A stretch of DNA of 63,628 nucleotides, filler included, from Collodictyon triciliatum (taxonomy: Eukaryota), in the NCBI GenBank assembly GCA_043381765.1. It is 12 parts of 12 records of this genome, joined end to end, with 100 filler letters (N's around TTAATTAATTAA, not from the genome) between each part and the next. Parts side by side here need not be neighbours in the genome. Positions count along the whole stretch, not along the records: positions 1 to 5,578 come from JBHJMP010005104.1; 11 more parts are not named here. One strand, given 5' to 3'. Both the position numbers and the translations under genes were made by a program. Below are positions 1-56,349 of this stretch, one piece after another (position 1 is the stretch's first letter; every line of letters begins with the position of its first letter). The notes beneath the pieces are model-generated. The model was not told where the DNA came from and searched no databases. It worked only from the letters and a program-made list of their open reading frames with translations.

Positions 1-345
1 AAAAAAAAAAAAAAAAAAAAAAAAAAAAGAAACAGAAAAAGAAAAAGAAAAAAAAAAAAAAAAAGAAAAAAAGAAAAAAAGAAAAAAAGAAAAAAAAAGT
101 AATCAGTCAAATGATTTTAATATTCACGTTTCTATTCCAGTGCGTGACCTGTTGGTTTTATGAATCTGGTCATAAGAACAGAGAAATCCCGAAAAGAGGG
201 ATGAGAACCATGTTTTTCAACATATGGCTCAATATTGATTCAAACCTTTAATAGTTAATCTTTCTCAGCAACCAAGAAAGCAACAAAACCTCTCGCTTCT
301 CAGCTTTTCGATACCTTAAGCATACCATACTGACCTGCATCAAGA

Positions 346-3300
346 ATGGACCGCAGAAGAAGGCGATCTTCTATCACGCACAGTGGCCACTGGAAGCCCC
401 TCGACGTTGAATCACTCTCCTACAAAAAACCCGAGAATCCCACCACAAGAGAAGGAAAAATATATGGACCCGTAATATGGCTATGTAAGTCCGGCCTATC
501 GACAGTACCGGAGACCGTAACGAATACACCCGATGTTGTATACTTATTTTTACAAAAAAACGCCATATCTTCCGTCACAGAATCCATCAAGAAATTGGTT
601 GATCTTGAGATCATCGACTTATCATTCAACAAGGTTTCAGAACTGCCTTTTGATTTTTCCAATCTTTCGCGCTTACAAAAAATATGGCTTCGAAATAACC
701 GTATCTCTCACATCCCCGACAGTTTCTCTGTTCTAACTTCCATAGAAGTGCTTGATGCTTCCAATAATCTTATTTCAAAGACCCCCGTTTTCCTCTCAAA
801 CTTGATCAGACTGAAACATCTGAACCTCTCAGCCAACCAGTTATCTACATTACCAGAGAACATAAACTTACACACAGGCATTCTGTCTCTTCAACTTTCT
901 GTGAATAATATTAATCTAGTGCCGAATAGTTTTTCATCCTTGCATTTACTTCAGGTTCTCAATTTGTCCTACAACCGTATTTCCAGCCTTGATCTGATTA
1001 CACCTGGTCTCTCTTCTCTAACCTTGCTGGACATATCGGGTAACCAAGTAGAGCGTTTCATTACACAGGATGTCAACCTACCCTTTCTCAAGGAAATCTA
1101 TGCACCCGATAATCTCATCTCTGACCTGCCTGCCTCGATGTCCCTGGTGACGTCTCTTGTTGTGTTGGACTTATCAAGAAATACGAGACTGTGTGAATTC
1201 AAGGTCAGGACAAAGAACATGAAAGACCTTCGATACTTGAGTCTATCTGACTGCAACCTAAAGAATATCCCCCCTGTACTCACGGAATCCCCACACATTG
1301 GATACTTATTACTTAAAGGCAACGCCATTCAAACTCTGAGCACAAACATCGCCATGATTAAGTCTCTCGAAGAACTGGATCTGTCCTACAACTACATCTC
1401 TCATGTCCCCTCTGACATACAGCAGCTCGCCAAACTAAGAGTTCTCCGACTATCCAGCAACTTTATATCTTCTCTTCCACGATCGATAACTGTCCTAAAG
1501 AACCTCGAGCAGCTCGACTTGCGTGAAAATGCGTTTGACCAAGGGGAGGATATCGTAATGGAGGCATATCTTTGCGACCTGGAAACATTAGACTTGTCCA
1601 ATAGTAATCTAACCCATGTACCAAGACTCATCAGCCAGCTCACAACCATACAAAAGCTGGATCTTTCTCACAATATGATATCGTCCATACCTCCTTTTGT
1701 CTCCAAGCTCTGCAGATTGACCAGTTTGAAGGCCAGCCACAACCAGTTATCCATCTTGCCCGATATCTTTGATGACATGCCATCATTAGTAGACCTGAAC
1801 ATCGACCACAACCCTTTGACACCAGAGGATTTGATGCTTTGGAAAAACATGGATATTCAGTCATGCTCTCTTAAAATCAAAGATTACTCGTTGATCGAAT
1901 TTCCTCAAAACATATCGCGTTATACATTCTTCAGGTCGATCAATCTAACCGGAAATAAAATAACTGCGATTCCAGATTTTTTGAGGCAATTTACCTTGCT
2001 GACTCACCTCGACTTATCTAGAAACTCTATCGGTGACCTACCCGATTTTATGAGTACCCTTCCCTTGAAACACTTTTCTGTAGAGGATAACGGCATGACC
2101 CCAGCCCACACAAAAGCGTGGTATGCTTTTGTATCGAGAAACACGTCACTGGATTTTTCATCTCAAGGACTAGCAGCCATTCCTGATTGCCTATCAAAGG
2201 TAACAACCTTATCGGAACTCGATATCTCCCACAACGAGTTGACACATATCCCTGAGACCATTTTGCCCATGATACACCTTGTCCGATTCTCTGTTCGAAG
2301 TAATCGCATTTCGTCTATTCCTCAGTTCATCACCAATTTGACAAACCTGGTAACCTTCGATATATCTGGCAACGCAATAAGCACTCATGAAGAAATAATG
2401 TGGTCTTGTTGCCTTCAAAAAGGGCTGTTCTTAAACTTGCATGGACAAAACCTACCAACCATGCCAAAGCTGATTGATAAGATGACCCATGTTGTATATC
2501 TAAACCTTGAAAGCAACAAAATAGTGTATCTACCAGATTCAATAAGTCATTTGATTAACCTGGAAGAACTGAATGTTGCTGATAACTTTATCGAGTGGTT
2601 ACCGCATGCACTGGGGAAATTGAAGGGTCTCAAAACTCTAAATCTCAACAATAACGATCTATCAATACACAAAGTCGATAACATCCCAGACGAAATCAAC
2701 CCCAACATCCCAAGTTCTCCCAAAGAAAACGACTCTGCCTTTACTGCATCCTATATCCAGTTCGTCCCACCATCGGTACTTGATACGCGGGGATGCAAAA
2801 TATCTATCCTAGGAAATATGAAGCTCCCGTCTGAGGTCATCCAAACATTCACAAAGTCGTCTAAAAGTGATGTCGATTACATAAAAAAGGCACTAATTAT
2901 TCTGGCTTCCATACGAAGAGTGCGTGACCATGATTCCAGTATAGCTGACGCATACGAAATTGCGGCAGAGCAACAACTAGCATTCCACTCTCATGCAAAC
3001 TCAGAGGCGAGCGAGTCTCTAGATTCTCAGATGCAGTCAATAGCGGACCTTGCTGTTAAGGCAGATGCTGTCCGACTGCTGTCTCCTTCATTTGTAGATG
3101 AGGTGGTCAGTAAAATGTGGAACAACGATGCAAATATGACCGAATATCTCATGAAAACAAAAAGGAAAAGCTCTTGGTGGGATGACGGGTTCTGGATGGG
3201 TTTGGCTTACTTTATCCAAGCGTTGAGAACTGAGTTCCCAAAATTCAGTACATCCCCGGCAGCGAAATTTTACTTGTCCTCCTTTGGCTATGCTATATAT

Positions 3301-5304
3301 CTGCTCTTTTTAACGATATACGTTGTCAATTACAACCAGACATACTCCACTCCTGTCTACTATATGTCCCAAGCTTTAGACAATACATTTGACCCGAGTG
3401 GGGTGACCAATGATTCCGATTTTTGGGATTACATTCACGATGTTTTAATACCCGGGCTATATGAGCCATCTAGGGATTCCAGGTTTTCTAATTCCGATTC
3501 AAAGATATATATCGAGTCTTATTTTAAACTGGCAGGGCAAGTGCAGTTTCGCCAACTGCGAGTGAAGCTGAGAAATTGTGACGCAGGAGCTCTGAATGAT
3601 TTTTATTCACATGCCTTGCCTTCATGCATTCCTCCGTACACTCCAGGCTTTGAGGAAAAATCAGCTTTCGTCACAAAGGATGGTAGCGTATGGGATTACA
3701 AAGAATACTCGGGATCAGCATCATTTATCAGCCCCACCGCAACATCATATCCTGGGAGTGGTTTTATCTACAAAGTCCCTGTAAATAAAACTGAGGGTAT
3801 TCAAAGCATATATAATATGGAAACCTCGGGGTGGATGGATCTGCAAACACGCGTTGTATTCATCGAATTCTTTGTTGTAAACCAAAATACAAACACATTC
3901 ACGCTCGCCCAGCTAATTTTCGAGTTCCTGGCATCTGGGAATGTTGTTGCCTCTAGTAAATATCACATTTTTCCAAACAGTTTTCTCGAGTGGAAATGGG
4001 GACAGACTGGCTCATCATGGGGCAATGCGATGTTTGGAATCCAAGTTGCCCTGATGATATACACGTTGGGATTCATTCTTCACGAAGGCCATCAATTTAT
4101 GGAAGACCCTAAAGACTATTTTGGAAACTTTTGGAACATGTTTGACATATCTCTTATTGTGTTGTTGATATCAATGATTACATCCCACGTGCAAGTCTAT
4201 CAACTTGCTCAAGATTACAATATGTTTGATGCGAACAGTGAGCCATCCACAGAGGATTTTATGTCCCGTATGCAACGGATAACTGTGTACATCTCATATC
4301 AAAAGGACATTTTCGCTGCCCTTTTATTCATGTCATGGGGACGTGTTTTGTTCTATTTTGGTATTCATTCATCCTTCGGTCCCATGCAGCTTGTTGTCAA
4401 ACACATGTTGAAAGATTTGCTTCAATTCCTCATACTCTTGATGGTATTTTTCTGTGCATTCACCACCGCATTTTATGCTGTCTATGGATCTTCTTTAAAA
4501 AATGTGTCCAGTATTCAGTCATCAAGCTATCTGTTGGCAGTGTTTCTCTTTGGGAATAGCGACTTTGACCCTCTTCAGCATGAAAACCCCATCATGGCCC
4601 CGCTCCTGTTTTTTGGATATGGACTTACTTGCTGCATTCTCCTTATGAATTTCCTCATCGCTATACTCACCAGCACATATGACAATATATATCGTGTTTC
4701 TCAAGATAGATACCGCCAACTTTTCACAGCCACCGTGCTGGAATTGATTCAAAGTCCTTTGCCGGTACCCTTCAATGTTTTGTATCCTGTCACATGGGCA
4801 TTACGCCCTCTGTGGGTTATGGCGAAGCCAGTAGGCTTTGAATTCCTTAGGATGTCTGGTGCAGCATGGGAAGACCGCTCAAGGGGTTGGGGTTTTATTT
4901 GGGATAATAAGCAGATGATAGCCTTGCTCGCTCACTTAGACCTCAAAAGCTTAGCGAACTTTTTTAGAGACTACAATGACATATTTGGGACCATATACAT
5001 CACAATCTGGATTGATCATATTGTGTTTGTATCGATGGGGGTTTTATCCTTTCTTGTTCAAGTTCCGTACTTTCTTTTCTCAAATGCAAGGGGTGCCGCG
5101 CACTTTTTGATATATCGAATTAGGTTCAAGAAGTCGAAAGTGCAGTCAAGGAGGCAGCTCCCAGTGAGCATAGATATAGACCTTTTTCAGTTAGTTCTTG
5201 TCCATATAGCGCTTTTTTTATTTCGACTTGTTTATCTTCTTAGCTTTATACCTTGGCTCTTGGTCTTCTCCTTCCGCTTTGTTATCGCCTGGAAAAAGGT
5301 TTGA
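346..5304 (+). CDS. LRR-containing TRP/polycystin-like cation channel; a single long exon, possibly continuing after a GT donor at about 5299
   Basis: 1652-aa ORF. About 770 aa of LxxLxLxxN repeats, then a pre-S1 'SPAAKF', a polycystin TOP domain (RQLRV, YPGSGF, WMDLQTRVVFIEF), 'YFGNFWNMFD', S5-pore-S6 'NFLIAILTSTY' and 'LPVPFN'. Confidence 0.88.
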   Translation: MDRRRRRSSITHSGHWKPLDVESLSYKKPENPTTREGKIYGPVIWLCKSGLSTVPETVTNTPDVVYLFLQKNAISSVTESIKKLVDLEIIDLSFNKVSELPFDFSNLSRLQKIWLRNNRISHIPDSFSVLTSIEVLDASNNLISKTPVFLSNLIRLKHLNLSANQLSTLPENINLHTGILSLQLSVNNINLVPNSFSSLHLLQVLNLSYNRISSLDLITPGLSSLTLLDISGNQVERFITQDVNLPFLKEIYAPDNLISDLPASMSLVTSLVVLDLSRNTRLCEFKVRTKNMKDLRYLSLSDCNLKNIPPVLTESPHIGYLLLKGNAIQTLSTNIAMIKSLEELDLSYNYISHVPSDIQQLAKLRVLRLSSNFISSLPRSITVLKNLEQLDLRENAFDQGEDIVMEAYLCDLETLDLSNSNLTHVPRLISQLTTIQKLDLSHNMISSIPPFVSKLCRLTSLKASHNQLSILPDIFDDMPSLVDLNIDHNPLTPEDLMLWKNMDIQSCSLKIKDYSLIEFPQNISRYTFFRSINLTGNKITAIPDFLRQFTLLTHLDLSRNSIGDLPDFMSTLPLKHFSVEDNGMTPAHTKAWYAFVSRNTSLDFSSQGLAAIPDCLSKVTTLSELDISHNELTHIPETILPMIHLVRFSVRSNRISSIPQFITNLTNLVTFDISGNAISTHEEIMWSCCLQKGLFLNLHGQNLPTMPKLIDKMTHVVYLNLESNKIVYLPDSISHLINLEELNVADNFIEWLPHALGKLKGLKTLNLNNNDLSIHKVDNIPDEINPNIPSSPKENDSAFTASYIQFVPPSVLDTRGCKISILGNMKLPSEVIQTFTKSSKSDVDYIKKALIILASIRRVRDHDSSIADAYEIAAEQQLAFHSHANSEASESLDSQMQSIADLAVKADAVRLLSPSFVDEVVSKMWNNDANMTEYLMKTKRKSSWWDDGFWMGLAYFIQALRTEFPKFSTSPAAKFYLSSFGYAIYLLFLTIYVVNYNQTYSTPVYYMSQALDNTFDPSGVTNDSDFWDYIHDVLIPGLYEPSRDSRFSNSDSKIYIESYFKLAGQVQFRQLRVKLRNCDAGALNDFYSHALPSCIPPYTPGFEEKSAFVTKDGSVWDYKEYSGSASFISPTATSYPGSGFIYKVPVNKTEGIQSIYNMETSGWMDLQTRVVFIEFFVVNQNTNTFTLAQLIFEFLASGNVVASSKYHIFPNSFLEWKWGQTGSSWGNAMFGIQVALMIYTLGFILHEGHQFMEDPKDYFGNFWNMFDISLIVLLISMITSHVQVYQLAQDYNMFDANSEPSTEDFMSRMQRITVYISYQKDIFAALLFMSWGRVLFYFGIHSSFGPMQLVVKHMLKDLLQFLILLMVFFCAFTTAFYAVYGSSLKNVSSIQSSSYLLAVFLFGNSDFDPLQHENPIMAPLLFFGYGLTCCILLMNFLIAILTSTYDNIYRVSQDRYRQLFTATVLELIQSPLPVPFNVLYPVTWALRPLWVMAKPVGFEFLRMSGAAWEDRSRGWGFIWDNKQMIALLAHLDLKSLANFFRDYNDIFGTIYITIWIDHIVFVSMGVLSFLVQVPYFLFSNARGAAHFLIYRIRFKKSKVQSRRQLPVSIDIDLFQLVLVHIALFLFRLVYLLSFIPWLLVFSFRFVIAWKKV

Positions 5305-5492
5305 TTTTTTTTCTTATGAAATTATTATGTACGAATAATTATTTTTCTAAAAAAATTCTTGAGGAGGTTTAACTTTTTTTCTCATCCGTTGCCACATCGG
5401 CATGTGTATCAACAGATAATAAAAGGTGAGAACTTCACATGTTTGTTTTTGTTTTTATTTTTATTTTTATTTTTATTTTTATTTTTGTTTTT

Positions 5493-5578
<86 letters not shown>

Positions 5579-5678
5579 NNNNNNNNNNNNNNNNNNNNNN
5601 NNNNNNNNNNNNNNNNNNNNNNTTAATTAATTAANNNNNNNNNNNNNNNNNNNNNNNNNNNNNNNNNNNNNNNNNNNN
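5579..5678. other. Artificial contig-joining spacer (N44-TTAATTAATTAA-N44); repeated at 11256-11355, 16931-17030, 22604-22703, 28277-28376, 33961-34060, 39626-39725, 45290-45389, 50953-51052, 56565-56664, 62233-62332
   Basis: Identical 100-nt spacer with stop codons in all frames, occurring about every 5.6 kb; genes are truncated at these spacers. Confidence 0.97.
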
Positions 5679-8600: not shown

Positions 8601-11255
8601 AGACATTAAATGAGCAAAATTCTAATTAGCTATCAAGAACTAATATAGCACGATAATTTTGCTTTCTTTTGGCAATCTACCTGAATTCCGAGCTGTGATA
8701 ACGATTTACCGAGCCCCTCGACTGACCATGTGTATCGAATCAAACCATCTTGGGAGCAAATGGGCAATGAGCCAGTTACCACGAACGAATTTTGTCTCCA
8801 TACATAGATAAACTGTATGATTAAACCGTGTTGCAATTAATCACCCCATCTTTTCATATAATATTTAAAAAGACATTTAAATACGATTACACTCGAATGT
8901 ATTCTCCCTAAACCATTCAAAATCGCTCGCATTTGTGACATGATGAGAACTTGCATATATAATACCTGAGTCTGTCCTCCAAGCAAAAACAAAGATGGGG
9001 GAGTGGCTGATGAACGATATATGGACACATCTTTGGAACTAGACGCCCCGAGGAAGTTGCTGATGATGACTCGGAATTCATAAAACACATTGGTTGGCAG
9101 CAGGGTATAATTTAGGCCTGATTTTCTATCGAGAATGAGCTCCGGCCCGTTTGTAGCCTCGACGACTTCCTTGAGGAGCAACAGAGCGCTTCTTTGGCTA
9201 GTGTAAGAAATCAAACTTTAAGTGACTATGTCTAAAAATAAAATAAAAAAGTGACCGTCAATATTATTAAGTACTGTATTAAAATGTTTAATATCATCAA
9301 TTTACGATTCACTTACGCATCACCATCCGCATCAGGCATCTTCAACAGCTCCCATCGGTAGTTAAGAGGCTGTCCTCCAGTCTTGTATGTTTGGAAGGTT
9401 TGCAGGCGTAGTGGAACGCAGTATCCCAAAGCTGTGTTTCCCTGTGATTTTGATGTTGATTTTTAAATTTTTCTTTTTATATGCTCGTTTTCTAGGGATT
9501 GAAATCAAAATTTTCATTATTGATATAAAATTCATCAATTGGAGATATTCATATAACTATTGGTGTTATATTTTTACAAAAACAATTCAAATATTTATGT
9601 ACCTGAATGATGATGATTGGGGATATATCATCTTTGATTGTGGTGGGCTGTGTTCCAGTAACGAACGGATAAAGTCTTCGGTTGAGCTGTTCTCCTCCTG
9701 CTCTGAAAATGGCATCCGGACGAATTGTAATCGGTGCTGACAGTGCAGGAAGCACCCTTGCAGATATCTCAAGTGTCTTCGAATCAATCCACACGCACTT
9801 TGGCTCCACAAACAGGCTGATTGTTCCCGAAGTCAAAAAGAAAGCACAATCTGAACCTCCAGGGTTGATAGCAGGGCCGTTTGTTTCTCTATCGAATGTG
9901 ACAATGACAGAGCTCAGACTTGAGGAGTAGTAGGCGCCAGTGTAGGAAGGAGGTTTCTCTGCAAAGTATAGATAAATGAGAATAATATAATTTCCATGGG
10001 TGCTATTTTATGTTTCAAAGAAAAAAAGAAAGGATTTTTGATTATTTGCCATATTTGTGAGTCTAATAATAAAACAACCGTAAAGGGCCAGCTTGGTGTT
10101 TGAAGTGATATTTCGCTGCTTATCAAATGATATGGTGATGTCAACCAGCGCTGGGTTTTGTGTCGAGGAACAGCGACAGACAGCATGAGTCGAGTTCTTG
10201 ACGACCAAAGCACCCTGTTATCGAATTCAAGTTGTAAAATTGAGATGTTGTTTACGAATTTTGGAGATATTTACAAAATAAGGGTTTAATTAACAGGTTT
10301 ACTTGATTTTGTCCTTCGATTGAGCAGACGGCGTACTTTGGGAACATCTCCACGAAATTGGACCCGACCAGAGTTACGTTAAAGGATTTGGTGTGGTCCT
10401 CGTCGGTAGGCTGGAATGATGACAGCACAGGTACTGAGTAGATGTAAAAGAGCTCCGGTCCGAGAGATTGCGAGTCGGAAAGCGATATATTAATCTAAGG
10501 TTTGCAGATTTTTTTTTGTACTTTGTTAGGAATGTATAAAAACATGATTCTTATAATTTTGAGAGGATATATAGGAAATAAGCAATGGTCAATTAAGTTG
10601 TTGTAAGCGCAGATTTAAATCGAATCGAAATCACCTTTGCGGTTTGGTTTGAGTAGAACTGTTGAGTTGGAGATGGAATGTTAAAATGAACGACATTATT
10701 AACAAGTTCTGCGCCATTAATAGTTGTAGATTTTTCTGCTCCATCTTCCACATAATGAAATTCAATCGGGTATGTACCGTCTGAGACTTCTTTTGTGACA
10801 ATGGTAACCTTTGTTCCACCCTCGGCCGAACCTAGGTTGGGTGTAATGGACAAAATACCGCTTTCAAAGTACTCAAATAAAACAGTAGTATTTGGCATTT
10901 GCCCTCCTACCGTAACTATGACTGCACCAGTAAAAGGAAACTGAGCAGCACCCAAAATACAAACTAGATTTGTATCGCTGTATCGCAAAACATTTGCGCA
11001 AATGACATCTCCGATGGCCACCGAGGGATTGGGTGAAGAAGGCGGTCCGAAGTTTTCACCGGTAATAGTGGCAGGAAAGTTTCCGGATAAAGAAGTCCTC
11101 GATGGATTTATAGAGCTGACAATAGGAGGGTAATAATCCCAAGTAGAAGAAGCTTCGAGAACATAGCTCCCGCTTATGACTTTGATGGGAAGGTCTCGAC
11201 CTATACCGGGAGGAGAGATGCAAGATATCAACTTTCCAGTGTGGAACCCAACGAT
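5679..11255 (-). CDS. Multi-exon IPT/TIG + REJ-domain (PKD1-like) cell-surface protein, partial at both ends
   Basis: IPT motifs (PPIVSSINP..ITGENFG; SITPNLGSAEGGTKVTI) at 10593-11231; REJ-like motifs (TYVFSLNATD; VRTNTPPRRG...DYPLTYSF; VKDVIG) at 6236-7260; many GT-AG introns. Confidence 0.75.
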
Positions 11256-11509
11256 NNNNNNNNNNNNNNNNNNNNNNNNNNNNNNNNNNNNNNNNNNNNT
11301 TAATTAATTAANNNNNNNNNNNNNNNNNNNNNNNNNNNNNNNNNNNNNNNNNNNNCCCCCCCCCCCCCCCCCCCCTCTTTTTTTTTTTTTTTTTATTATT
11401 ATTATTGTTATTATTATTCTTTCCTATTTAAATCCAGTTCTTATCCGATAGTAATCCATTTTCTTTTTCATTAAAAAAAATTCTTTTCATTTGTCCTCTT
11501 CGCTCATAG

Positions 11510-47162: not shown

Positions 47163-50100
47163 ATGTATGGTTCATATTCAAAAATATTAAAATCAAATTC
47201 AATTGAGCATATTTGCGCTGGATTATATTAATATATCTATCTAGGTTTTCAAAACTGTTTTTTGCATGTGTTGCTATCACTTCCATGATAACACCAGCAT
47301 TTTCCTCACATCCTCATCAAAGGTAATTTAAATACAATTACAAATTAGCTCGAGTTGTTCATTTCAAATAATGAAAGCAGGTGCCAGTACTCCAGAGAAG
47401 AGTTGCTATCGATGAAAGTCGAAGATGCATTCCAAATTCTTTTGAGCTATTATGATGAAACATGTGCATCGTTAAAGGGGAATGAAGAAATTTTTTCAGA
47501 AATGAATATTAGCCAAAAAAGTGAAGAATATTCATATCAAAATAGAATAAAGGCTGAATTGAATAACAAAAGAAAAATCCCCGCTATTGGAGCCGATTTC
47601 TATGAATTAAATCAATTACTAAAAAGCGGCGATGGCAGAAATAATTTTGTGAGAAACGAAGAGAACCGTAATTTGGTGCAGGGTGGTAATAAGACTCAAT
47701 ATGAGCTTCTTGTTCAGCTTTATGATGTCCTGGGCGGAGATGATTGGTTGAAGAACATTGGATGGAGGAATCAAAGCATTCCAATTTGCAAGTGGTACGG
47801 GATATCGTGCCATCAAAGCTGTCTTCTAGAAGAATATAAAGTACTTTATTCAAAAATATTATAAATTTATTGATTTATATCTAAATAATTTTCTTATAGA
47901 AAAACACATGCCCCGTCCTAAAAATCAGAATGTCAAAAAACAATCTTTATGGTGATATTGGAATTGCAGCAGCGATTTTTGAGAGACTTCCATTATTGAA
48001 TTATTTGGACTTGAGTTATAACTCAATTTTCGGAAATCTCCCAAACTTTAATCTTCCAAGTATTTCGTACTTGAACCTTTACGTAAATCGGATGACTGGA
48101 ACAATTCCAGACTTTCAAGGGATGCCGAATATTGAGCATCTTAAAGTTGATGGAAATGTATTAGAGGGCACAATACCTGATTTTTCAGCGATTTCAAGGA
48201 TAGAGAAATTATGGATAGGCATCAGCAATAAGATTACAGGTACTTATTTTAAACAGCATTTATTCTGAAATCTATTAACATATCCATTTTTCTTTATTTA
48301 AGGAACCCTACCTGATTTCTCGGGATTACCAAATGTTCAGATTCTTGTTATTTACGGATGTAAAGTTTACGGTTCGTATGTATTTCTTTGACTTAAGCAT
48401 TATCAAGTTTTAATTTAGATCATTTTAGGAACCATTCCAAACTTTATTGGAATTCCGAGCGTTGAAATAATTACTCTTTACAACAATAAATTAACAGGTA
48501 ATAATTATGATCGTTTCACATATTGTCAAAATACAAACTAACATCAAATATAGGAACCGTTCCTGAATTCAGTGGGATTCCGAATGTTGAAATTATCGAA
48601 TTTTCTAGAAATCTATTGACTGGTAACTCATGATGTTATTTCCTACAATATTCACGAAAGGCTAACTTTTTTTTTTTACAGGAACTATCGCAAACTACAA
48701 TAGCATTCCAATCGTCAAAATAATTGATTTATCTAATAACCTACTAAATGGTCAGTTTCCAAAAATAAAAAATTGCTCATATGTTTTGATTCGGATACTA
48801 ACTTTACATCGCAGGAACGATTCCGAACTTTAGTGGAATACCGAATATTTTATGGATTTATCTTTACAATAATAACTTGACTGGTAATATTTATGATTAT
48901 TTGACATACTGTCAAAGTACAAACTTACTTTTGTTTAGGAAGTATCCCTAATTTTAGCGGAATTCCGAGTGTTAAAATAATATATATCCACAGCAATCGA
49001 TTGATAGGTAAGACTCATAATTGTTTCATAGATTTTACAGCGCTAACTTTCTATCTCAGGTACCGTTCCAAATTTCAGTGGTATCCCGAATTTGAAAGTG
49101 ATTCATATTTCTAGTAATCAACTGAACGGTAAATACTTTTTCATATCCCAGTTTTCGAATAATAGCTAAGTTTTCCTTACAGGAACGGTTCCAAACTTCA
49201 GTGGAATTCCGAATGTTGAGATGATTTCTCTTCCTATCAACCAGATGATAGGTAAATTATATAATCGTTTGATTTCATGGTGATAAATACTGAGTATTCT
49301 GATAGGGACGGTTCCAAACTTCAGTGAAATTCCAATGGCTTTGTGGATTTCTCTAGGATATAACAAATTGATAGGTACATTACATAACTATTTCATATTT
49401 TTTGGCATAATAATAAAATTGTATCACAGGAACGGTGCCAAACTTCAATGGAATTCCGAATATTTTGGGGATAGACCTTTATAACAATCAACTGATAGGT
49501 AACTTATGCACTCTTATCTATGATTGATGAATAAAAATAACCCTATATTACAGGGACAATTCCAGACTTCAGTGGCTTTCCCAAAATTCTGAGGTTATAT
49601 CTTTTTAGCAACCAGCTGAATGGTAAGTTTTATGACTATTTTAAAAATACTCTGTAAAAGCTAACTTTATATTACAGGCACAGTTCCAAATTTTGATAAG
49701 ATACTAAAAGTTAGAAGAATCTACCTTGACATAAATATATTAAATGGTGAGTTTGATACATTTTTCTCTTGTTATTCCTGAAGACTCTCTCATTAGATTT
49801 TAACTATAGGCACAATTCCAAACTTCTCCAAAATAAGGAATTTAGAGGTTTTCTCTGCTTATGAGAATCAGTTAGAGGGGGAAATCCCAGATTTCAAATA
49901 TTGTGAAAACATCAAAGAAATAGTATTGTCTCGAAACAAGCTGACAGGTACATTGCCAGAGTTCAATCTTGAAAATCTTTTTAGATTGGACGTGAGCGAA
50001 AACCAAATCAGTGGCTCAATACCTGAATACTGGAAATTACCTTCAATTAAATACATGGATTTGTCTTGGAACAAATTGAAAGACACAGTCCCTATACGTT

Positions 50101-50952
50101 TTCAGGAATTATCAGAGTTAAAATCGCTTGTCTTATCAAATAATCAATTTTCTGGAACTATGCCTATTTACTTTTGGAATTTGCCAAATTTAGCTACGAT
50201 CGATTTGAGAAACAACACATTTTCAGGAGATGTTGGTATTTTCATTGTTCCATCTTCAAAAGATTATGATTATTCATATGACTATTTCTATGAAAACCTT
50301 TTGCTTGATGATAATAAGCTCTATGGAGAACTAAATTGGAGGATATATAACTTTATAGCTAATGTGAAGACTTTGAGCTTAAAAAACAACAATATCACAA
50401 AGCTTGATGAACTCACAAAATTATTGAAATGGACTTCCTTTGACCTTACTGGCAATCCGATTGTTGGAAGCATTCCTGAATCATATTTTGGGTTTTCAAA
50501 GCTTGAGTATTTGGGATTGAAAAACACATTAATGAATCGTGGGGCAGGTAACTTTCTTCCTGATTTCATGACTTTTACGACATCTTTCAATCTTCAAGAC
50601 TTGACGAAGCTTTACCTTTGTCCTTCGATTATTTCGAAATCTGGTTTGATTGAATTGGATGTTGACTTGAATCCGGAATACTATGAATTTGAATTTTGTA
50701 AATGCTTGCCTGGCTATTTTGGATTCGGAAATAATTGTGTTCGGTGTCCAAGCGGATGCGAATGTCTTGATGGAACGTCTTTGAGATTCTGCCATGCTTC
50801 ACCAAACATTACTGCAGTGAAATCAATAACACCTTGTTCACGACCAGAGTCATGTGATGCATCGATTCCAAAGAAAATTTCGAATTCAAGTGCGACAGTC
50901 GAAATCACAGACCTTTGTCAAGAGGGTTACGAAGGATATGCATGCTCTAAAT
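47163..50952 (+). CDS. Secreted or surface LRR receptor-like protein (signal peptide, LRRNT, plant-type LRRs, Cys-rich region), 3' partial
   Basis: MFSKLFFACVAITSMITPAFS signal-like segment; cap LVQLYDVLGGDDW...ICKWYGISC; LxGxIP LRRs; CKCLPGYFG..CVRCP and CQEGYEGYACS at the contig edge. Confidence 0.88.
48303..49746 (+). repeat. Tandem array of twelve 69-nt LRR exons separated by 52-64-nt phase-1 introns
   Basis: Exons start at 48303, 48429, 48554, 48682, 48815, 48939, 49060, 49183, 49306, 49430, 49554 and 49678; each is AG|69 nt|GT and encodes one 23-aa GT(I/V)PNFSG-type LRR. Confidence 0.92.
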
Positions 50953-51052
50953 NNNNNNNNNNNNNNNNNNNNNNNNNNNNNNNNNNNNNNNNNNNNTTAA
51001 TTAATTAANNNNNNNNNNNNNNNNNNNNNNNNNNNNNNNNNNNNNNNNNNNN

Positions 51053-54000
51053 AAGCTGATGAGCCATTTGAAGTTAATCCATCTTTCAAATGCATCGTCA
51101 TTGCGACTACTCAAGATGCACTTACCAATCCCCCAAGAGGACTTCCGCCTCCGTTTTTGAATAGATTTGAAAAACAGATGTTGAATTCTGCAGTTGTTAT
51201 AGAATCGTTTAAACTTCAAGAATTGAGAGAAACCTTCAGGGTTTGTGATATAAATGAACAATAAAAACATCACTATTTCAAAATGCTATTTTCCTTCTTA
51301 ATATTACATTTTCTAAATATAGGAAAGGGTTAGAGAGCTGGTTCAAAAATGTGGACTAGAAAATGAATCTCTCTCCATTTTCCCAGGAGTGAATGAAGAG
51401 TCTATTGATTCTTTAGTTATTGTAGAATTTTCAAAAGTAAAGGACGCTGAAAAAGAAACTGATGCTAAAGGGGTAAATTTTCCTTTTTCATAAAGCCAAT
51501 TCAAATATATAACTTAAAAAACGTTGATTGAGATACTTACATGACACAGATTGTTAGAGCATGCTACAAATCTCTTGTGAATGTTGCATCTACACCAGAT
51601 ATTGTGATTTGCAAAGGAACAAAGGTAAGCCTCATCCCAGACTATACGGTATGTTATTTAGAGCATCAAAATTTATAATACCTGATTTTTTAAAAGAAGG
51701 CTTCATTCAATTTAGGAGAAAGAATTATATTTTGAAAAACAGGAGCATGACAGTCTATTGAAGTTTATTGAAAAAAAGAGAAGAGGAAATGCAGATTCCC
51801 GCCCAAAATGGGGTCACCTTGTTCAAGTAACCACCAACACTCGACTCCTGACTAATTTACAACTCAGACGTTCGCTGAACCCATTAATGAGCGAGAACCA
51901 AGTATGGATAAATTTGATATAAAGCCTTTCAAACAGCTCTGCATTTTCCTTCTATTTGGTGTTTTTTAGTGGGATGCTATTTTTTGAAAGAAGAATCTAA
52001 TTTTAGGTATCATGTATTGACTTGCATCTACTTGGTTCATCGGATAGACTCGAGGAAAATGTATACACCTTTTTGCAATCAGCCGATGGTGTAGTCCTCT
52101 TCGTAAACTGTGATATGAGCACAATCAGGAATATGAGAGTCAACCATTGCAAATTCATATGTAGTAAGTTGATGGCCGATTGGTTGGAAGATGAAAATGA
52201 TGTTGATAAATATATCATCTTACTTTGTTACTCACCTTCGCAGCCTGGTAATAGAGAGTCCCTTAAAATTGGGTTTGACCCTGTATGGGAAAATGTTTTC
52301 CTGGACTCTCTTCTTGCCTCTACATTTACTCTTTTATCAACTGTTTCACCTTCACTGGATGAAATTATCAAGTCTATATTGGAAGGCGATATTCAAGGCC
52401 TGATACAACATGAATATGTCAACGCCTTGAGCCGACTCGAATATCCTGAAGGATTTGACTTTAAGGAAAAGCTGAATACATCATTACAAATCCTTGGAGA
52501 GATGCAAGTTAGCCAAGCTTTTGGTTCCAAGCTTCACTATCTGATGGCAAAAGAGAAGAAGGGAGGATTTGGGACCGGACTATCAACTATGGCACTCGAT
52601 GTCGCTAAAGATAAAAATATGCTGACTTCATACGGAAGCTTCAGAGATTCCATGATGGCGAAATTGGAGAGGCATATATATGTTTATATTCAAAAGCTTA
52701 TTTTCATCGTTGACCGATACGAAAATATGAATCTTTTGAGCCCAGGCCAAGCCCAAAATAACATAAGGGCTGGATTCCTTCAGTTTATGGAATCTACAGA
52801 CTTTTGGAATGCATCGGCTGAAATTTATGAAGGATACTCAAGAATAGCGACACACCCAGATTTTAGAACTGAATTTCCTTTTAGCTATCTGATCTTTTCA
52901 TTTGTAGAGACTTTTAAAACTCAGGAGTTTGCCTCTCAGCTGGACAAGGACATTTTGAAAGGGTCCGGAAGACTTCAAACACGCTTACAATCTTCTCTTA
53001 GACTTGAGGACATCGACCATGACATGGAACTTGCCTATGTGAAAGATTTCTTATTTTATCACAATCTATCATCCCCTGGGCGGTTGAAACGTCATCAAAC
53101 AGTCAGTGTCAGGATTATTGAGCTCATATCATCCTGCTTTGAGTGCAATGTTTCGTTCGGAGATGTTCATTACATTTATTGGGCATTCGAATCGTGGCTC
53201 AGAAAGCTCATTCTATCTTTATCTCAACTTTCTCAAAGAACCTTGGTGGCTGTGGAGAAAAATTTGACAGAATTTACTCAAGGGCGATTTTCTGAAGTAT
53301 TGGACACTTTATTTAGTGCAATATATACAAACTATATCGGTAATCAAGAAAACAGTACCAGATGGATAATTGAATTTGAAAATGCGATACAATCACTGCA
53401 TGCCATTGGTTTGGGACTTGACTCGCTGAAATCTTATCCAACACAAAGAGCTGGCTCAAAAATAGAGTCTCTCAGACTAAAGCTCAAGAATGCTGCCCTT
53501 TTATTTTCTCTTACTCAACTCGGGACTTCATTGAATATTGTAGAACCATCTGACTTAAATGTCGTTGGGGAGACAATTAACCGTCACTTCGAAGCAGAGA
53601 AAGATTACGAAAACATCGAAAATGTTTTGCATGTCATAAATGCAATCAAATCTGTCGGCTTAAAAGGGGATGAACAGAGAAAGAGAGAATTTAATTTTGA
53701 GTCCATTCAGCTTGTGTTTTTTGACTTGGTTTTACCTAAAGACCAAAGACCAAACCCTGATGTTGTTCAATCTCTGTTGGAGTTTTTCCTTGGTAGAAAG
53801 GGTGAATTTATGGCTTTGATTGGGGACACTCTGAAAGATGACAGCTTTGTCTTTAGTTGTCTCAGCATACTATTTAGACTCCTAGAACAAGGCTTGATTA
53901 CGTATGCAGATGGAATAAACATATTGTTTAAAAGCTATTGTGAGACAAAGTCTTCTGAACTTCTTGATTTGGAGCCCATGGTTTTATATGCTCATGCATA

Positions 54001-56349
54001 TGAAAGGGTAGTATACGAAAATATAACTGATTGGAGTCAGGTAGAAGAACCAGAAAATATCGACGGTGCTCCGTTAGTATCGACGTTGCATCAAATCGCA
54101 TACCTGAAGGCTCGGCTTCATATATATGCTTCGGAATTGGTACACACATTCCAACTGGGCAATACTATGGATACAAAGTCAATCGAAGATGTATGCAACC
54201 TATTGGAACGCTTCCCTGAGTTGACCATGAATGGAGTCTGCTACTTGGTTAAATGTGTTGAAATGAATGTTGGAACTATGGTTGCTTACGATTACCTCAC
54301 AAAGAAGAGCCTTGGTCAAATAAGGACATGGTTCTTGAGATTTATTGGAACAGAACACACAGATAACCAAGCAACCCTGAACGTGCTTCCTTTACATCTA
54401 AAATCTTCTGTAGAAACTGTCAATATTATTTCCTCAATTTCGAGACTGATAATTGAAATCGGTAAAGGCTCAGCAGAAGCGAAGGCAGGTTTTGGAAAAA
54501 TAAAAGCTGAGAGAAAGATACCTGGTCTGTCATTCCCTCTGATTTTCTCAGGAGCACTTTTTGAAATCAAATTCAATGTAACCCACGCGATGCTTTCATC
54601 AATACTATCTGTTTTCAAAGAGGAAATTAGATTAAATACTGTCGAGGAAAAAATCGTCGCCAATCTCTTATGCCCTCCTCAGACTATTTCTTCGTATCAA
54701 CTCCTTCAATCTCCCGCCGATATCGGTCTTGACACAAACTTCAAGATATCATTCGTTGTTCGCTATCTTTTGCTTAGCTTGACTAAGGCAGAATGGCCAT
54801 TGAGGGTTATATTCTCGAAGCCGCGGGAATCCCAAAACTTGTTCATTCCGACCATGCCGGACGACCCAAGAAAGATCGAAATCAGTAAGTTTGTCCTGTA
54901 TTCGCATTTTCTATGTACAAAGTAAAGTTATTTGTCCTAACCACTGAATGATTAGCCAAAATGATAAATGCCGGATTGGGAGCATATTTGTGTGATAATG
55001 GTCACCTTTATGAAATACCTCCGTGTACCTGGCCTGTGGAAATCGGAAAATGTGTTAATTGTACAGCCAAGATTGGTGGATTAAATCATATTGCGGTAGC
55101 TCAATTATATTCAAAATCGCAATATTTTTGATTGACATGTTAAATTTTATGAAGGATAAGCAACAAACCCGCCATATATTTAATTATATAGGTACCAGGA
55201 AATGTTCGTGTGTTTATCGATGCCAACGGTCAGATAAAGCCAAATGAATCCAGGTTGGCTCCTATTATTCTTATTTTAATACATATATACTAACTTTCAC
55301 ATGGATGTATTTAAATTAGGGCAAAAACGAGATATTTGAAGGATGTCATTGAATATACGCCAAAAGGATACGAGGTATCAGACTAATGATTAAATGATTA
55401 GACTTTTTCTGTAATTTTTAGAATGAATAACATTAACTAATTTATACAGCCCGTCACCAGTCATGACGCAATGACCGAGAGAAATATGAATCAAAGGCAC
55501 TACCGAGTGCTTAGGATTCTTATTCATACGTCGTATATCCTATCATCCATCAGCGAAAATGCAGATGTTTGTTTAACTACATATTTGATGAATATCAATA
55601 TAATACATATATATGGATTATTATTATTTGCTCTTATAAACCTCCATTTAATGAATTTAGTTTTCTAAAATCCCTGAACAACCGGCCCACGAGTTCTTTT
55701 GGAGAAATTATTCAAGCGATTGGGAATTTTTGAAGACGTCCCTCAATCTTAATGACCAACAATTATTTTATGCGCTCATAGGACTACTGGATACTCTATC
55801 AGGTTTTTTTCCCTATGCTATATGAAGAGAAGAAAAAAACCATCCTAGTACCCATTTGAAAACTATTAATGCCTTATTGAATTTAAAGACTGGTGCAAAA
55901 TACTAAATATTAATGAACTTCCAGAATCTCAATTACCTCCAGCCTCCTTGTCAACGATTGAGGGAAGAGACAAGTGGGAAAGGGATATTTCTGGTGTAGT
56001 GAACGGATGGTTTGGTAGAATCTCGTCGATTGTGGCCACAAAGGTACATAAACTTTGAATAATATTTATTTAAGTGTATCTTAACAAGAACTAAAACTCA
56101 AAAAAAAAAATAGGCAAAAGAAGCTGAAGTGGAGGCTGGCGTCAATTTTTTGGAAAGGAAAATCACAGAAACATACGACAAGGGAAAGGAAGAATCCCGC
56201 GCGATTTTCATGCCCTGTTTATTCAATCCCATGGTTAAGGTCACTAAAAGATTAGTGGTCACTTCGTTTGTATCTGAAGAGTCCAATAAGAGAAAGGCAC
56301 ACTTAATTGATGTGATATTCAGTCACCTTGAAAAGATAAAGCCTTTGAG
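51053..56349 (+). CDS. RNF213 (mysterin)-like AAA+/E3 ligase, internal fragment including the RZ zinc finger
   Basis: VNPSFKCIVIA...PPPFLNRFEKQ (AAA end); FPFSYLI; FIPTMPDD; exon 54956-55095 CDNGH..IPPC..C..C..IGGLNH; YRVLRILIH. Confidence 0.82.

Follow-up and report, generated by a model that had tools for sequence, protein, structure and literature searches.

A polycystin-2-type channel gene with a long N-terminal leucine-rich repeat array in Collodictyon triciliatum

The stretch of Collodictyon triciliatum DNA analyzed here (the window; 63,628 nucleotides, filler included, from NCBI GenBank assembly GCA_043381765.1) opens with a contig, JBHJMP010005104.1, that carries one long open reading frame (346..5304, + strand; 1652 codons). 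This frame encodes a long array of leucine-rich repeats (LRRs) followed by an ion channel of the polycystin-2 (PKD2) type, also known as TRPP, within the transient receptor potential (TRP) family. The frame is read, with rather more confidence than doubt, as the first exon of a real gene of a diphyllatean (CRuMs) protist, whose product is a PKD2/TRPP-type subunit with an LRR platform that signals through a linker to the gate. The original prediction had described a long cytoplasmic-type LRR array and a complete six-transmembrane TRP channel in one open reading frame, and both parts were recovered: 31 LRRs (aa 64-785), followed by the Polycystin_dom and PKD_channel domains and the helices S1-S6.

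Evidence for the fusion

Seven Trinity genes of Diphylleia rotans (P0002, P0003, P0004, P0006, P0007, P0008 and P0012; EukProt EP00002, unannotated) also combine LRRs, a polycystin domain and a channel domain. The window protein and these LRR-PKD2 proteins have a common domain order, with collinearity that starts in the LRRs and holds until exon 1 ends; the D. rotans proteins are 23-32% identical to the window protein, and their LRR arrays are mostly shorter. A single BLASTP high-scoring segment pair with P0003 spans query residues 242-1651 (E = 3e-138), and one with P0004 spans residues 596-1647 (E = 1e-127). In both alignments the order is unchanged from the last LRRs across the spacer and linker to the channel and the post-S6 helices. 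Judged from the sequences, the LRR-channel fusion is genuine.

Fusion of two unrelated genes in frame on a short contig, as an assembly chimera or a gene-model artefact, is scarcely credible. The assembly is fragmented into contigs of about 5.6 kb, the GC skew shifts near nt 3000, and no contig of the sequencing runs bridges nt 2711-3446, all of which would fit a chimera. However, the order LRR-spacer-linker-channel-post-S6 recurs in seven D. rotans transcripts that were assembled independently, the junction lies inside single alignments, the frame is open across 1652 codons, and both halves are present in one cDNA-like run (X2) at about 99% identity. An assembly chimera is thus excluded by collinear homologues in independently assembled transcripts of another species and not by reads. 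It had been argued at the outset that the uninterrupted frame in itself ruled out an artefact; the conclusion is upheld by the collinear homologues, whereas the open frame alone leaves a chimera possible. A misassembly near 2700-2900, suggested as the test of the fusion, was likewise answered in part, as single alignments to P0003 and P0004 cross this place, but the run contigs do not.

Eight public runs share part of the gene stretch; none of these contains half or more of its words, and no RNA run is among them. The contigs of four public runs cover 346-2492, 2561-2711, 3446-4266 and 5144-5298. The cDNA-like contigs of the runs X1 and X2 follow the exon without gaps and collinearly over 346-2492, 3446-4266 and 5144-5298. 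At 1613-1621 the X1 and X2 contigs both break off and continue with 15-16 unrelated letters. This loose end presumably corresponds to a template-switch adaptor primed by a chance match in the gene, and the adaptor-like end at 1621 suggests that X1 and X2 are cDNA libraries (the run records merely guess 'RNA').

Channel core

The membrane part had been assigned to the TRP family, and Pfam, phmmer and superposition of the predicted fold narrow this assignment to the TRPP/PKD2 type. The first transmembrane helix, S1 (aa 971-996; 3256..3333, + strand), was identified by hydropathy and is helical in the AlphaFold2 (AF2) model (model residues 191-216). The polycystin/TOP domain between S1 and S2 (aa 997-1223; 3334..4014, + strand) is matched by Polycystin_dom (PF20519) at aa 1020-1205 (E = 3.5e-25, 89.2 bits against a cut-off of 23.6) and contains a beta-sheet in the model. 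It carries three N-x-S/T sequons and two cysteines, Cys1078 and Cys1094, that are invariant across the family. The helices S2-S6 and the pore helices (aa 1224-1469; 4015..4752, + strand) were delimited by Pfam, by alignment with PKD2L1 and by superposition on PKD2, and aa 1225-1447 match PKD_channel (PF08016; E = 6.6e-21, 75.2 bits against a cut-off of 22.4).

The hydropathy scan detected S1-S6 and then two more C-terminal hydrophobic helices (aa 1546-1579, nt 4981-5082; aa 1613-1650, nt 5182-5295), which correspond to residues 770-799 and 833-870 of the AF2 model, respectively. Both lie in the post-S6 region (aa 1470-1651; 4753..5298, + strand), which is conserved in D. rotans P0003 and P0004, the BLASTP alignments extending to query residues 1651 and 1647, respectively. 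No EF-hand was found by Pfam in the part of the protein that is present.

In a phmmer comparison with solved structures, aa 983-1450 matched PKD2L1 (E = 1e-40) and PKD2 (E = 1e-36). The AF2 model of aa 781-1651, built with 71 aligned sequences, has a mean predicted local distance difference test score (pLDDT) of 84.4 and a predicted template modelling score (pTM) of 0.78. Foldseek aligned this model with human PKD2 (9dwq) at E = 7e-22 and a template modelling (TM) score of 0.83 on the target, and VIA-align superposed it on human PKD2 with Z = 31.6 and a root-mean-square deviation of 2.5 Å over 449 residues (model residues 190-674).

The asparagine of the S6 motif, Asn1435, is near-invariant among 71 PKD2-like sequences. 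The filter triplet of the window protein is F1402-G1403-N1404 (nt 4549-4557), at the place where PKD2L1 has L-G-D; the acidic L-G-D type of filter is not present in the window protein. The filters of the paralogues read FGN, FGE, FGD or FAD, and in the window protein an Asp stands two residues further on. Because F-G-N replaces L-G-D, a non-selective cation pore is expected, with a Ca2+ preference weaker than that of PKD2L1. The pore architecture would therefore be intact and its divalent preference altered.

N-terminal LRR array

The N-terminal 63 residues (346..534, + strand) are hydrophilic and Arg-rich, and neither the translation nor the hydropathy scan reveals a signal-peptide-like hydrophobic stretch. 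They are followed by 31 contiguous LRRs of 22-25 residues each (aa 64-785; 535..2700, + strand), which were delimited by Pfam matches and by the repeat register, set out by hand in a script. The Pfam scan found 10 families in the protein in all, and over aa ~60-785 it gave LRR_8 (E = 3.5e-58), LRR_4 (E = 8.8e-55) and LRR_14 (E = 2.2e-46). A 25-residue repeat variant occurs at every fourth repeat in the distal half, with starts at aa 387, 481, 574 and 668. The LRR part belongs to the SHOC-2/LRRD1 class, which has tandem LxxLxLxxN repeats of 23 residues and no hydrophobic segment ahead; among solved structures the closest are LRRD1 (E = 2.6e-50) and SHOC-2 (E = 1e-40). At the DNA level the terminal poly-T is the sole tandem repeat of the contig and the LRR part has none; the array is therefore old and not an assembly stutter.

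The absence of a signal peptide, part of the original prediction, was borne out by the Kyte-Doolittle hydropathy scan (19-residue window, threshold 1.5), which found no hydrophobic segment in aa 1-975, although no dedicated signal-peptide predictor was run. In PKD2 the N-terminus is inside and the TOP domain outside. With this topology and no hydrophobic segment ahead of S1, the LRR solenoid would be cytosolic. Beside the LRRs, Pfam detected neither NB-ARC/NACHT nor any other switch domain at E <= 0.01.

The window and the relative represented by X1/X2 are 99.2% identical, with 26 base differences over 3119 covered bases. In the LRR half 14 of the 20 differences are nonsynonymous and six are synonymous, whereas in the channel half two of six are nonsynonymous and four are synonymous. 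These counts, which are not significant at 26 sites, are suggestive of an LRR half that may be evolving faster than the channel half.

Spacer and pre-S1 linker

The last LRR is joined to the linker by a short spacer (aa 786-808; 2701..2769, + strand), the place that had been flagged for possible misassembly, and this spacer is collinear with D. rotans P0003 and P0004 inside the single BLASTP alignments. Its pLDDT is mostly below 50 (model residues 1-5, 7-11 and 15-23 of 1-28). The alignment and the AF2 model then define a helical linker, or pre-S1 domain, of about 160 residues (aa 809-970; 2770..3255, + strand) that is conserved in the family. Ten-residue blocks of the linker reach a pLDDT of 74-96 over most of its length in the AF2 model, the first dozen residues being lower, and the linker folded by itself has a pLDDT of 79.5. 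Pfam gives no match inside the linker, and the solved PKD2 structures leave it uncovered, their alignments beginning at about model residue 190.

When the linker was compared with 48,161 chains without a prefilter, the six best matches were the pre-S1 regions of TRPM3, TRPM7, TRPM8, nvTRPM2, TRPM3 and TRPM2 (Z = 8.6-7.0). The next matches were TRPM4, TRPC4 (Z = 6.3), TRPC1/4, TRPM5 and TRPY1 (Z = 5.7), and the pre-S1 regions of TRPM, TRPC and TRPY1 channels account for 13 of the 50 best rows. The whole model matched TRPM4 (Z = 14.2) and TRPC1/4 (Z = 13.9, 394 residues), aligned from model residues 18-23 on. These predicted-fold matches are suggestive of a resemblance between the linker and the TRPM/TRPC pre-S1 helical domain. 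If real, this likeness would tie the cytosolic design of group-I TRP channels to the TOP-domain core of group II.

Contig context and 3' end of the gene

The window consists of about 12 contigs of about 5.6 kb each, and the gene stands alone on the first one (1-5578), where 346..5304 is the sole long frame. This contig is followed by an artificial spacer (5579..5678, no strand) made up of 44 N, a 12-base linker with stops in six frames and another 44 N, which joins unrelated contigs. Eleven such spacers occur about 5.6 kb apart across the window (further examples at 11256-11355 and 16931-17030), and many contigs end in homopolymer runs. Because the contigs are joined by artificial spacers, there is no gene neighbourhood, and the sequence past 5578 is unrelated to the gene.

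The frame 346..5304 does not represent the whole gene: the stop codon (5302-5304) is probably intronic and the gene probably continues past the end of the 5578-base contig. The open reading frame and the X1/X2 contigs define a large first coding exon (346..5298, + strand; aa 1-1651) that comprises the LRR array, the linker, the PKD2-type channel and the post-S6 helices. The X2 contig tracks the window up to 5298 and then diverges, its next 10 letters being identical to window 5416-5425. The intervening 117 nt (5299..5415, + strand) are a probable GT-AG intron, with GT at 5299 and AG at 5414-5415, that holds the stop codon of the frame. The 10 matching letters would form a micro-exon (5416..5425, + strand), with AG directly ahead of it and GTGAG directly behind, and the start of the next intron (5426..5578, + strand) runs into poly-T (5442-5578) and the contig end, the downstream exons being missing. 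This model of the 3' end rests on one low-depth contig from one run. The remainder of the X2 loose end past the micro-exon has no match anywhere in the window, and a scan of JGI metagenome contigs with aa 940-1651 for the missing 3' exons gave 19 pattern matches, of which none was confirmed.

The D. rotans paralogues run 500-700 residues further past the equivalent point, and in four of the seven LRR-bearing ones this C-terminal extension contains a SPRY domain. The SPRY domain of these four (P0002, P0004, P0006 and P0008) sits 200-300 residues past the post-S6 helices. Among channels, SPRY is otherwise known from ryanodine receptors. The corresponding region of the window gene would fall in its missing exons, and a SPRY domain is predicted there from these four paralogues.

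Relatives and distribution

With aa 940-1652 as the query, HMMER gave 3237 matches (E <= 0.001) in an exhaustive comparison with 1.84 billion cluster representatives. The best six scored 259-343 bits and the next 168 bits; all six contain LRRs, Polycystin_dom and PKD_channel, and all come from D. rotans (EukProt). An eighth D. rotans gene, P0009, belongs to the same clade and has no detectable LRR, and P0002, P0006 and P0008 have far fewer LRRs than the window protein. In a quick IQ-TREE tree of 42 channel domains, the window protein and the eight D. rotans genes form a clade with a Shimodaira-Hasegawa-like approximate likelihood ratio test (SH-aLRT) support of 99. Its sister (SH-aLRT 97), the nearest outgroup among the rows sampled, is the ankyrin-bearing metagenome protein P0029. 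The only other LRR-bearing match among those scanned is P0052 (ENA metagenome), which combines LRRs, ankyrin repeats and a PKD channel; it is placed elsewhere in the tree and therefore looks like an independent LRR capture.

Domain content was surveyed with Pfam in 57 of the 150 listed representatives, picked for about 160 or more residues ahead of the channel or for a long C-terminus; the other 93 and ranks 151-3237 lay outside this survey. LRRs were present in eight of the 57, ankyrin repeats in eight (the form with both LRRs and ankyrin repeats being counted in each) and WD40 repeats in one (Cavostelium). Several were PKD1-like proteins with REJ, GPS and PLAT. Ankyrin-bearing channels with a species name came from Balamuthia (the 'TRP-like ion channel Pkd2' of Balamuthia mandrillaris) and Cavostelium. 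In the protein P0069 of Cavostelium apophysatum (EukProt), WD40 propellers occupy about 800 residues N-terminal to a PKD2-type channel, and by its predicted domains this protein is another unreported swap of a repeat array onto the same kind of pore.

A second PKD channel was not found on the other 11 contigs of the window, where tblastn gave LRR similarity only (26734-27333), and the ESM Atlas yielded no usable match. As far as the sequences go, LRR-PKD2 is a lineage-restricted paralogous family, so far almost confined to Diphylleia and its relatives. Since PKD2-like channels of Amoebozoa and environmental protists carry ankyrin or WD40 arrays, the LRR array is best read as a swapped cytosolic repeat module. 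The N-terminus had been put forward as unusual for a TRP channel. This is correct insofar as no published description of it was found, but the claim is narrowed by the seven D. rotans genes, the metagenome protein with LRRs and ankyrin repeats, and the PKD2-like channels with ankyrin or WD40 repeats.

Proposed mechanism and alternatives

Tuning of a cation pore by cytosolic repeats (ankyrin, MHR) is the classic theme of TRP channels. In the favoured reading, the subunit would tetramerise like PKD2 and would presumably form a cation channel. The LRR array would take over the role that ankyrin and MHR arrays have in other TRP channels and serve as a binding platform for cytosolic partners such as regulators, the cytoskeleton or the axoneme, and its occupancy or position would be relayed via the linker/pre-S1 helices to the S6 gate.

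Several points weigh against this reading. The coupling of the LRRs to the gate is drawn by analogy from ankyrin-bearing TRP channels. The Z scores of the linker are modest (best 8.6) and in a range that helical bundles can reach by chance, and Foldseek with the linker alone gave nothing at E <= 0.001 (best E = 1.7). The filter is without the acidic residue of PKD2L1, so the conduction properties, or conduction itself, could differ. The C-terminus of the protein is missing from the contig, together with any regulatory domains there. No contig of the four runs spans nt 2711-3446, and the tree is a quick version and not a careful maximum likelihood search.

The earlier proposal was that of a one-component sensor, in which the concave face of the LRR array binds a cytosolic ligand (a prey or pathogen molecule, or a second-messenger-bound protein) and opens the pore directly. 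Plant resistosomes formed by coiled-coil nucleotide-binding LRR receptors (CC-NLRs) are a known case in which LRR recognition ends in Ca2+ influx. A large and fast-changing LRR surface gives a weak hint of such a sensor (14/20 against 2/6 differences nonsynonymous), as does the expansion of the family to at least seven paralogues that differ widely in LRR number, a pattern often seen in sensor families. However, with 26 sites this contrast in substitutions falls short of significance, Pfam detected no nucleotide-binding switch or other sensor-type domain, the repeats are like the scaffold LRRs of SHOC-2 and LRRD1, and the ligand is purely hypothetical. The direct ligand-opened sensor is considered unlikely.

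The array may also act as a mechanical tether or gating spring, the 31-repeat solenoid tying the channel to the cytoskeleton or axoneme and carrying force to the gate. In NOMPC, 29 ankyrin repeats serve as the gating spring. PKD2 of Chlamydomonas is reported to be attached to the axoneme (PMC7265326). Consistent with a tether, the solenoid is long and unbroken and is followed by a short spacer and a folded linker that may resemble the TRPM/TRPC pre-S1 region, and the organism is a flagellate. However, P0002, P0006, P0008 and other paralogues have far fewer LRRs, so that array length lacks the conservation required of a spring; in addition, no microtubule-binding element was identified. The tether is judged distinctly improbable.

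A further alternative gives the array a purely targeting or scaffolding role (trafficking, clustering or assembly of a signalling complex) that leaves gating unaffected. The repeats are of scaffold type, and the SPRY domain at the C-terminus of four of the seven LRR-bearing paralogues suggests a protein-binding hub, whereas structural coupling is suggested by the linker that joins the array to S1, which is conserved and has a confidently predicted fold. Little weight is given to this alternative.

The most far-reaching reading is a true one-component receptor-channel, in which the LRR solenoid would sense an intracellular ligand or bear load and gate the TRPP pore directly through the TRPM/TRPC-like linker. 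This reading is doubtful. If true, it would be an LRR-gated cation channel with an origin independent of plant NLR resistosomes and LRRC8, and the design of repeat array, linker helices and TRP pore would tolerate the complete replacement of one kind of repeat by another (ankyrin, WD40, LRR). The LRR-bearing TRPP clade beside PKD2-like channels with ankyrin or WD40 repeats is a natural domain-swap experiment that sets a generic lever against a specific sensor. With this family, CRuMs, a deep branch of the eukaryotes that has been poorly sampled, gains a lineage-specific expansion of signalling genes.

Other frames in the window

Several other coding frames are present on the remaining contigs. 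A 1749-aa frame (34345-39594, - strand) encodes WD40 propellers (aa ~1-470) together with numerous Sel1 repeats (E = 4.3e-86); it reaches the contig end on either side and is probably a fragment of a larger gene. For a 967-aa frame (52022-54925, + strand), Pfam gave nothing at E <= 0.001. A TM9SF/EMP70 gene is represented by two exons (23322-23690 and 24997-25530, + strand); the second is 79% identical to a D. rotans protein, against at most 69% for the other 119 matches listed, which puts the organism close to Diphylleia, most likely as a diphyllatean distinct from D. rotans. A frame with an IPT/TIG domain (10593-11231, - strand; E = 6e-15) runs into its contig end. Three more LRR-coding frames are found on other contigs at 26725-27456 (- strand), 47900-48265 (+ strand) and 49926-51008 (+ strand), the first of which shows 25-33% identity to the LRR array of the channel. 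These three frames suggest an LRR-rich genome.

Comparison with known systems

The window protein shares with PKD2 and PKD2L1 the six-transmembrane core, the TOP domain with its cysteine pair, the pore helices and the Asn motif of S6. It differs from them in having about 970 cytosolic residues before S1, whereas the N-terminus of PKD2 is short, and in having two extra hydrophobic helices past S6 and the filter F-G-N instead of L-G-D. The ankyrin- and WD40-bearing PKD2-like channels of protists likewise combine cytosolic N-terminal repeats with a PKD2-type core, but the repeat type differs. P0029 and the window protein have a P-V-P-F-N motif after S6 in common. The BLASTP homology of P0029 begins about five residues before S1 (aa 966; fragment residue 166) and misses the body of the linker.

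PKD1 has a few extracellular LRRs behind a signal peptide, REJ, GPS and PLAT, and 11 transmembrane helices, with a C-terminal membrane domain that is PKD-channel-like. LRRs and a PKD-type membrane part are thus common to the PKD1 family and the window protein, whereas REJ, GPS and PLAT are absent from the 10 Pfam families found in the latter. In LRRC8, the volume-regulated anion channel (VRAC), cytosolic LRRs affect gating; the pore is a pannexin-like hexamer with four transmembrane helices per subunit, and the LRRs are C-terminal. The window protein, in contrast, has N-terminal LRRs and a PKD2-type pore with six transmembrane helices, and the membrane parts of the two are not homologous. LRR sensors of the NLR type have an NB-ARC/NACHT switch, which was not detected in the window protein.

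Full-text literature searches for LRRs with polycystin or TRP channels returned no description of an LRR-PKD2 fusion (supplements were not covered). Three items that were considered, PMC3879662, bioRxiv 2024.02.19.579948 and PMC11015965, were irrelevant to the LRR-PKD2 architecture in the parts that were available. The nearest published analogue is the PKDRR family of oomycetes, described in the available part of its report (PMC7399828) as lineage-specific PKD2-type channels with ryanodine-receptor R domains that are functionally uncharacterised. Capture of a cytosolic domain is common to PKDRR and the window protein, but PKDRR captured R domains and not LRRs, and in another eukaryotic lineage. 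The window protein is a TRPP channel in which the cytosolic repeat module has been exchanged, in keeping with the domain shuffling known from PKD2-like channels of protists.

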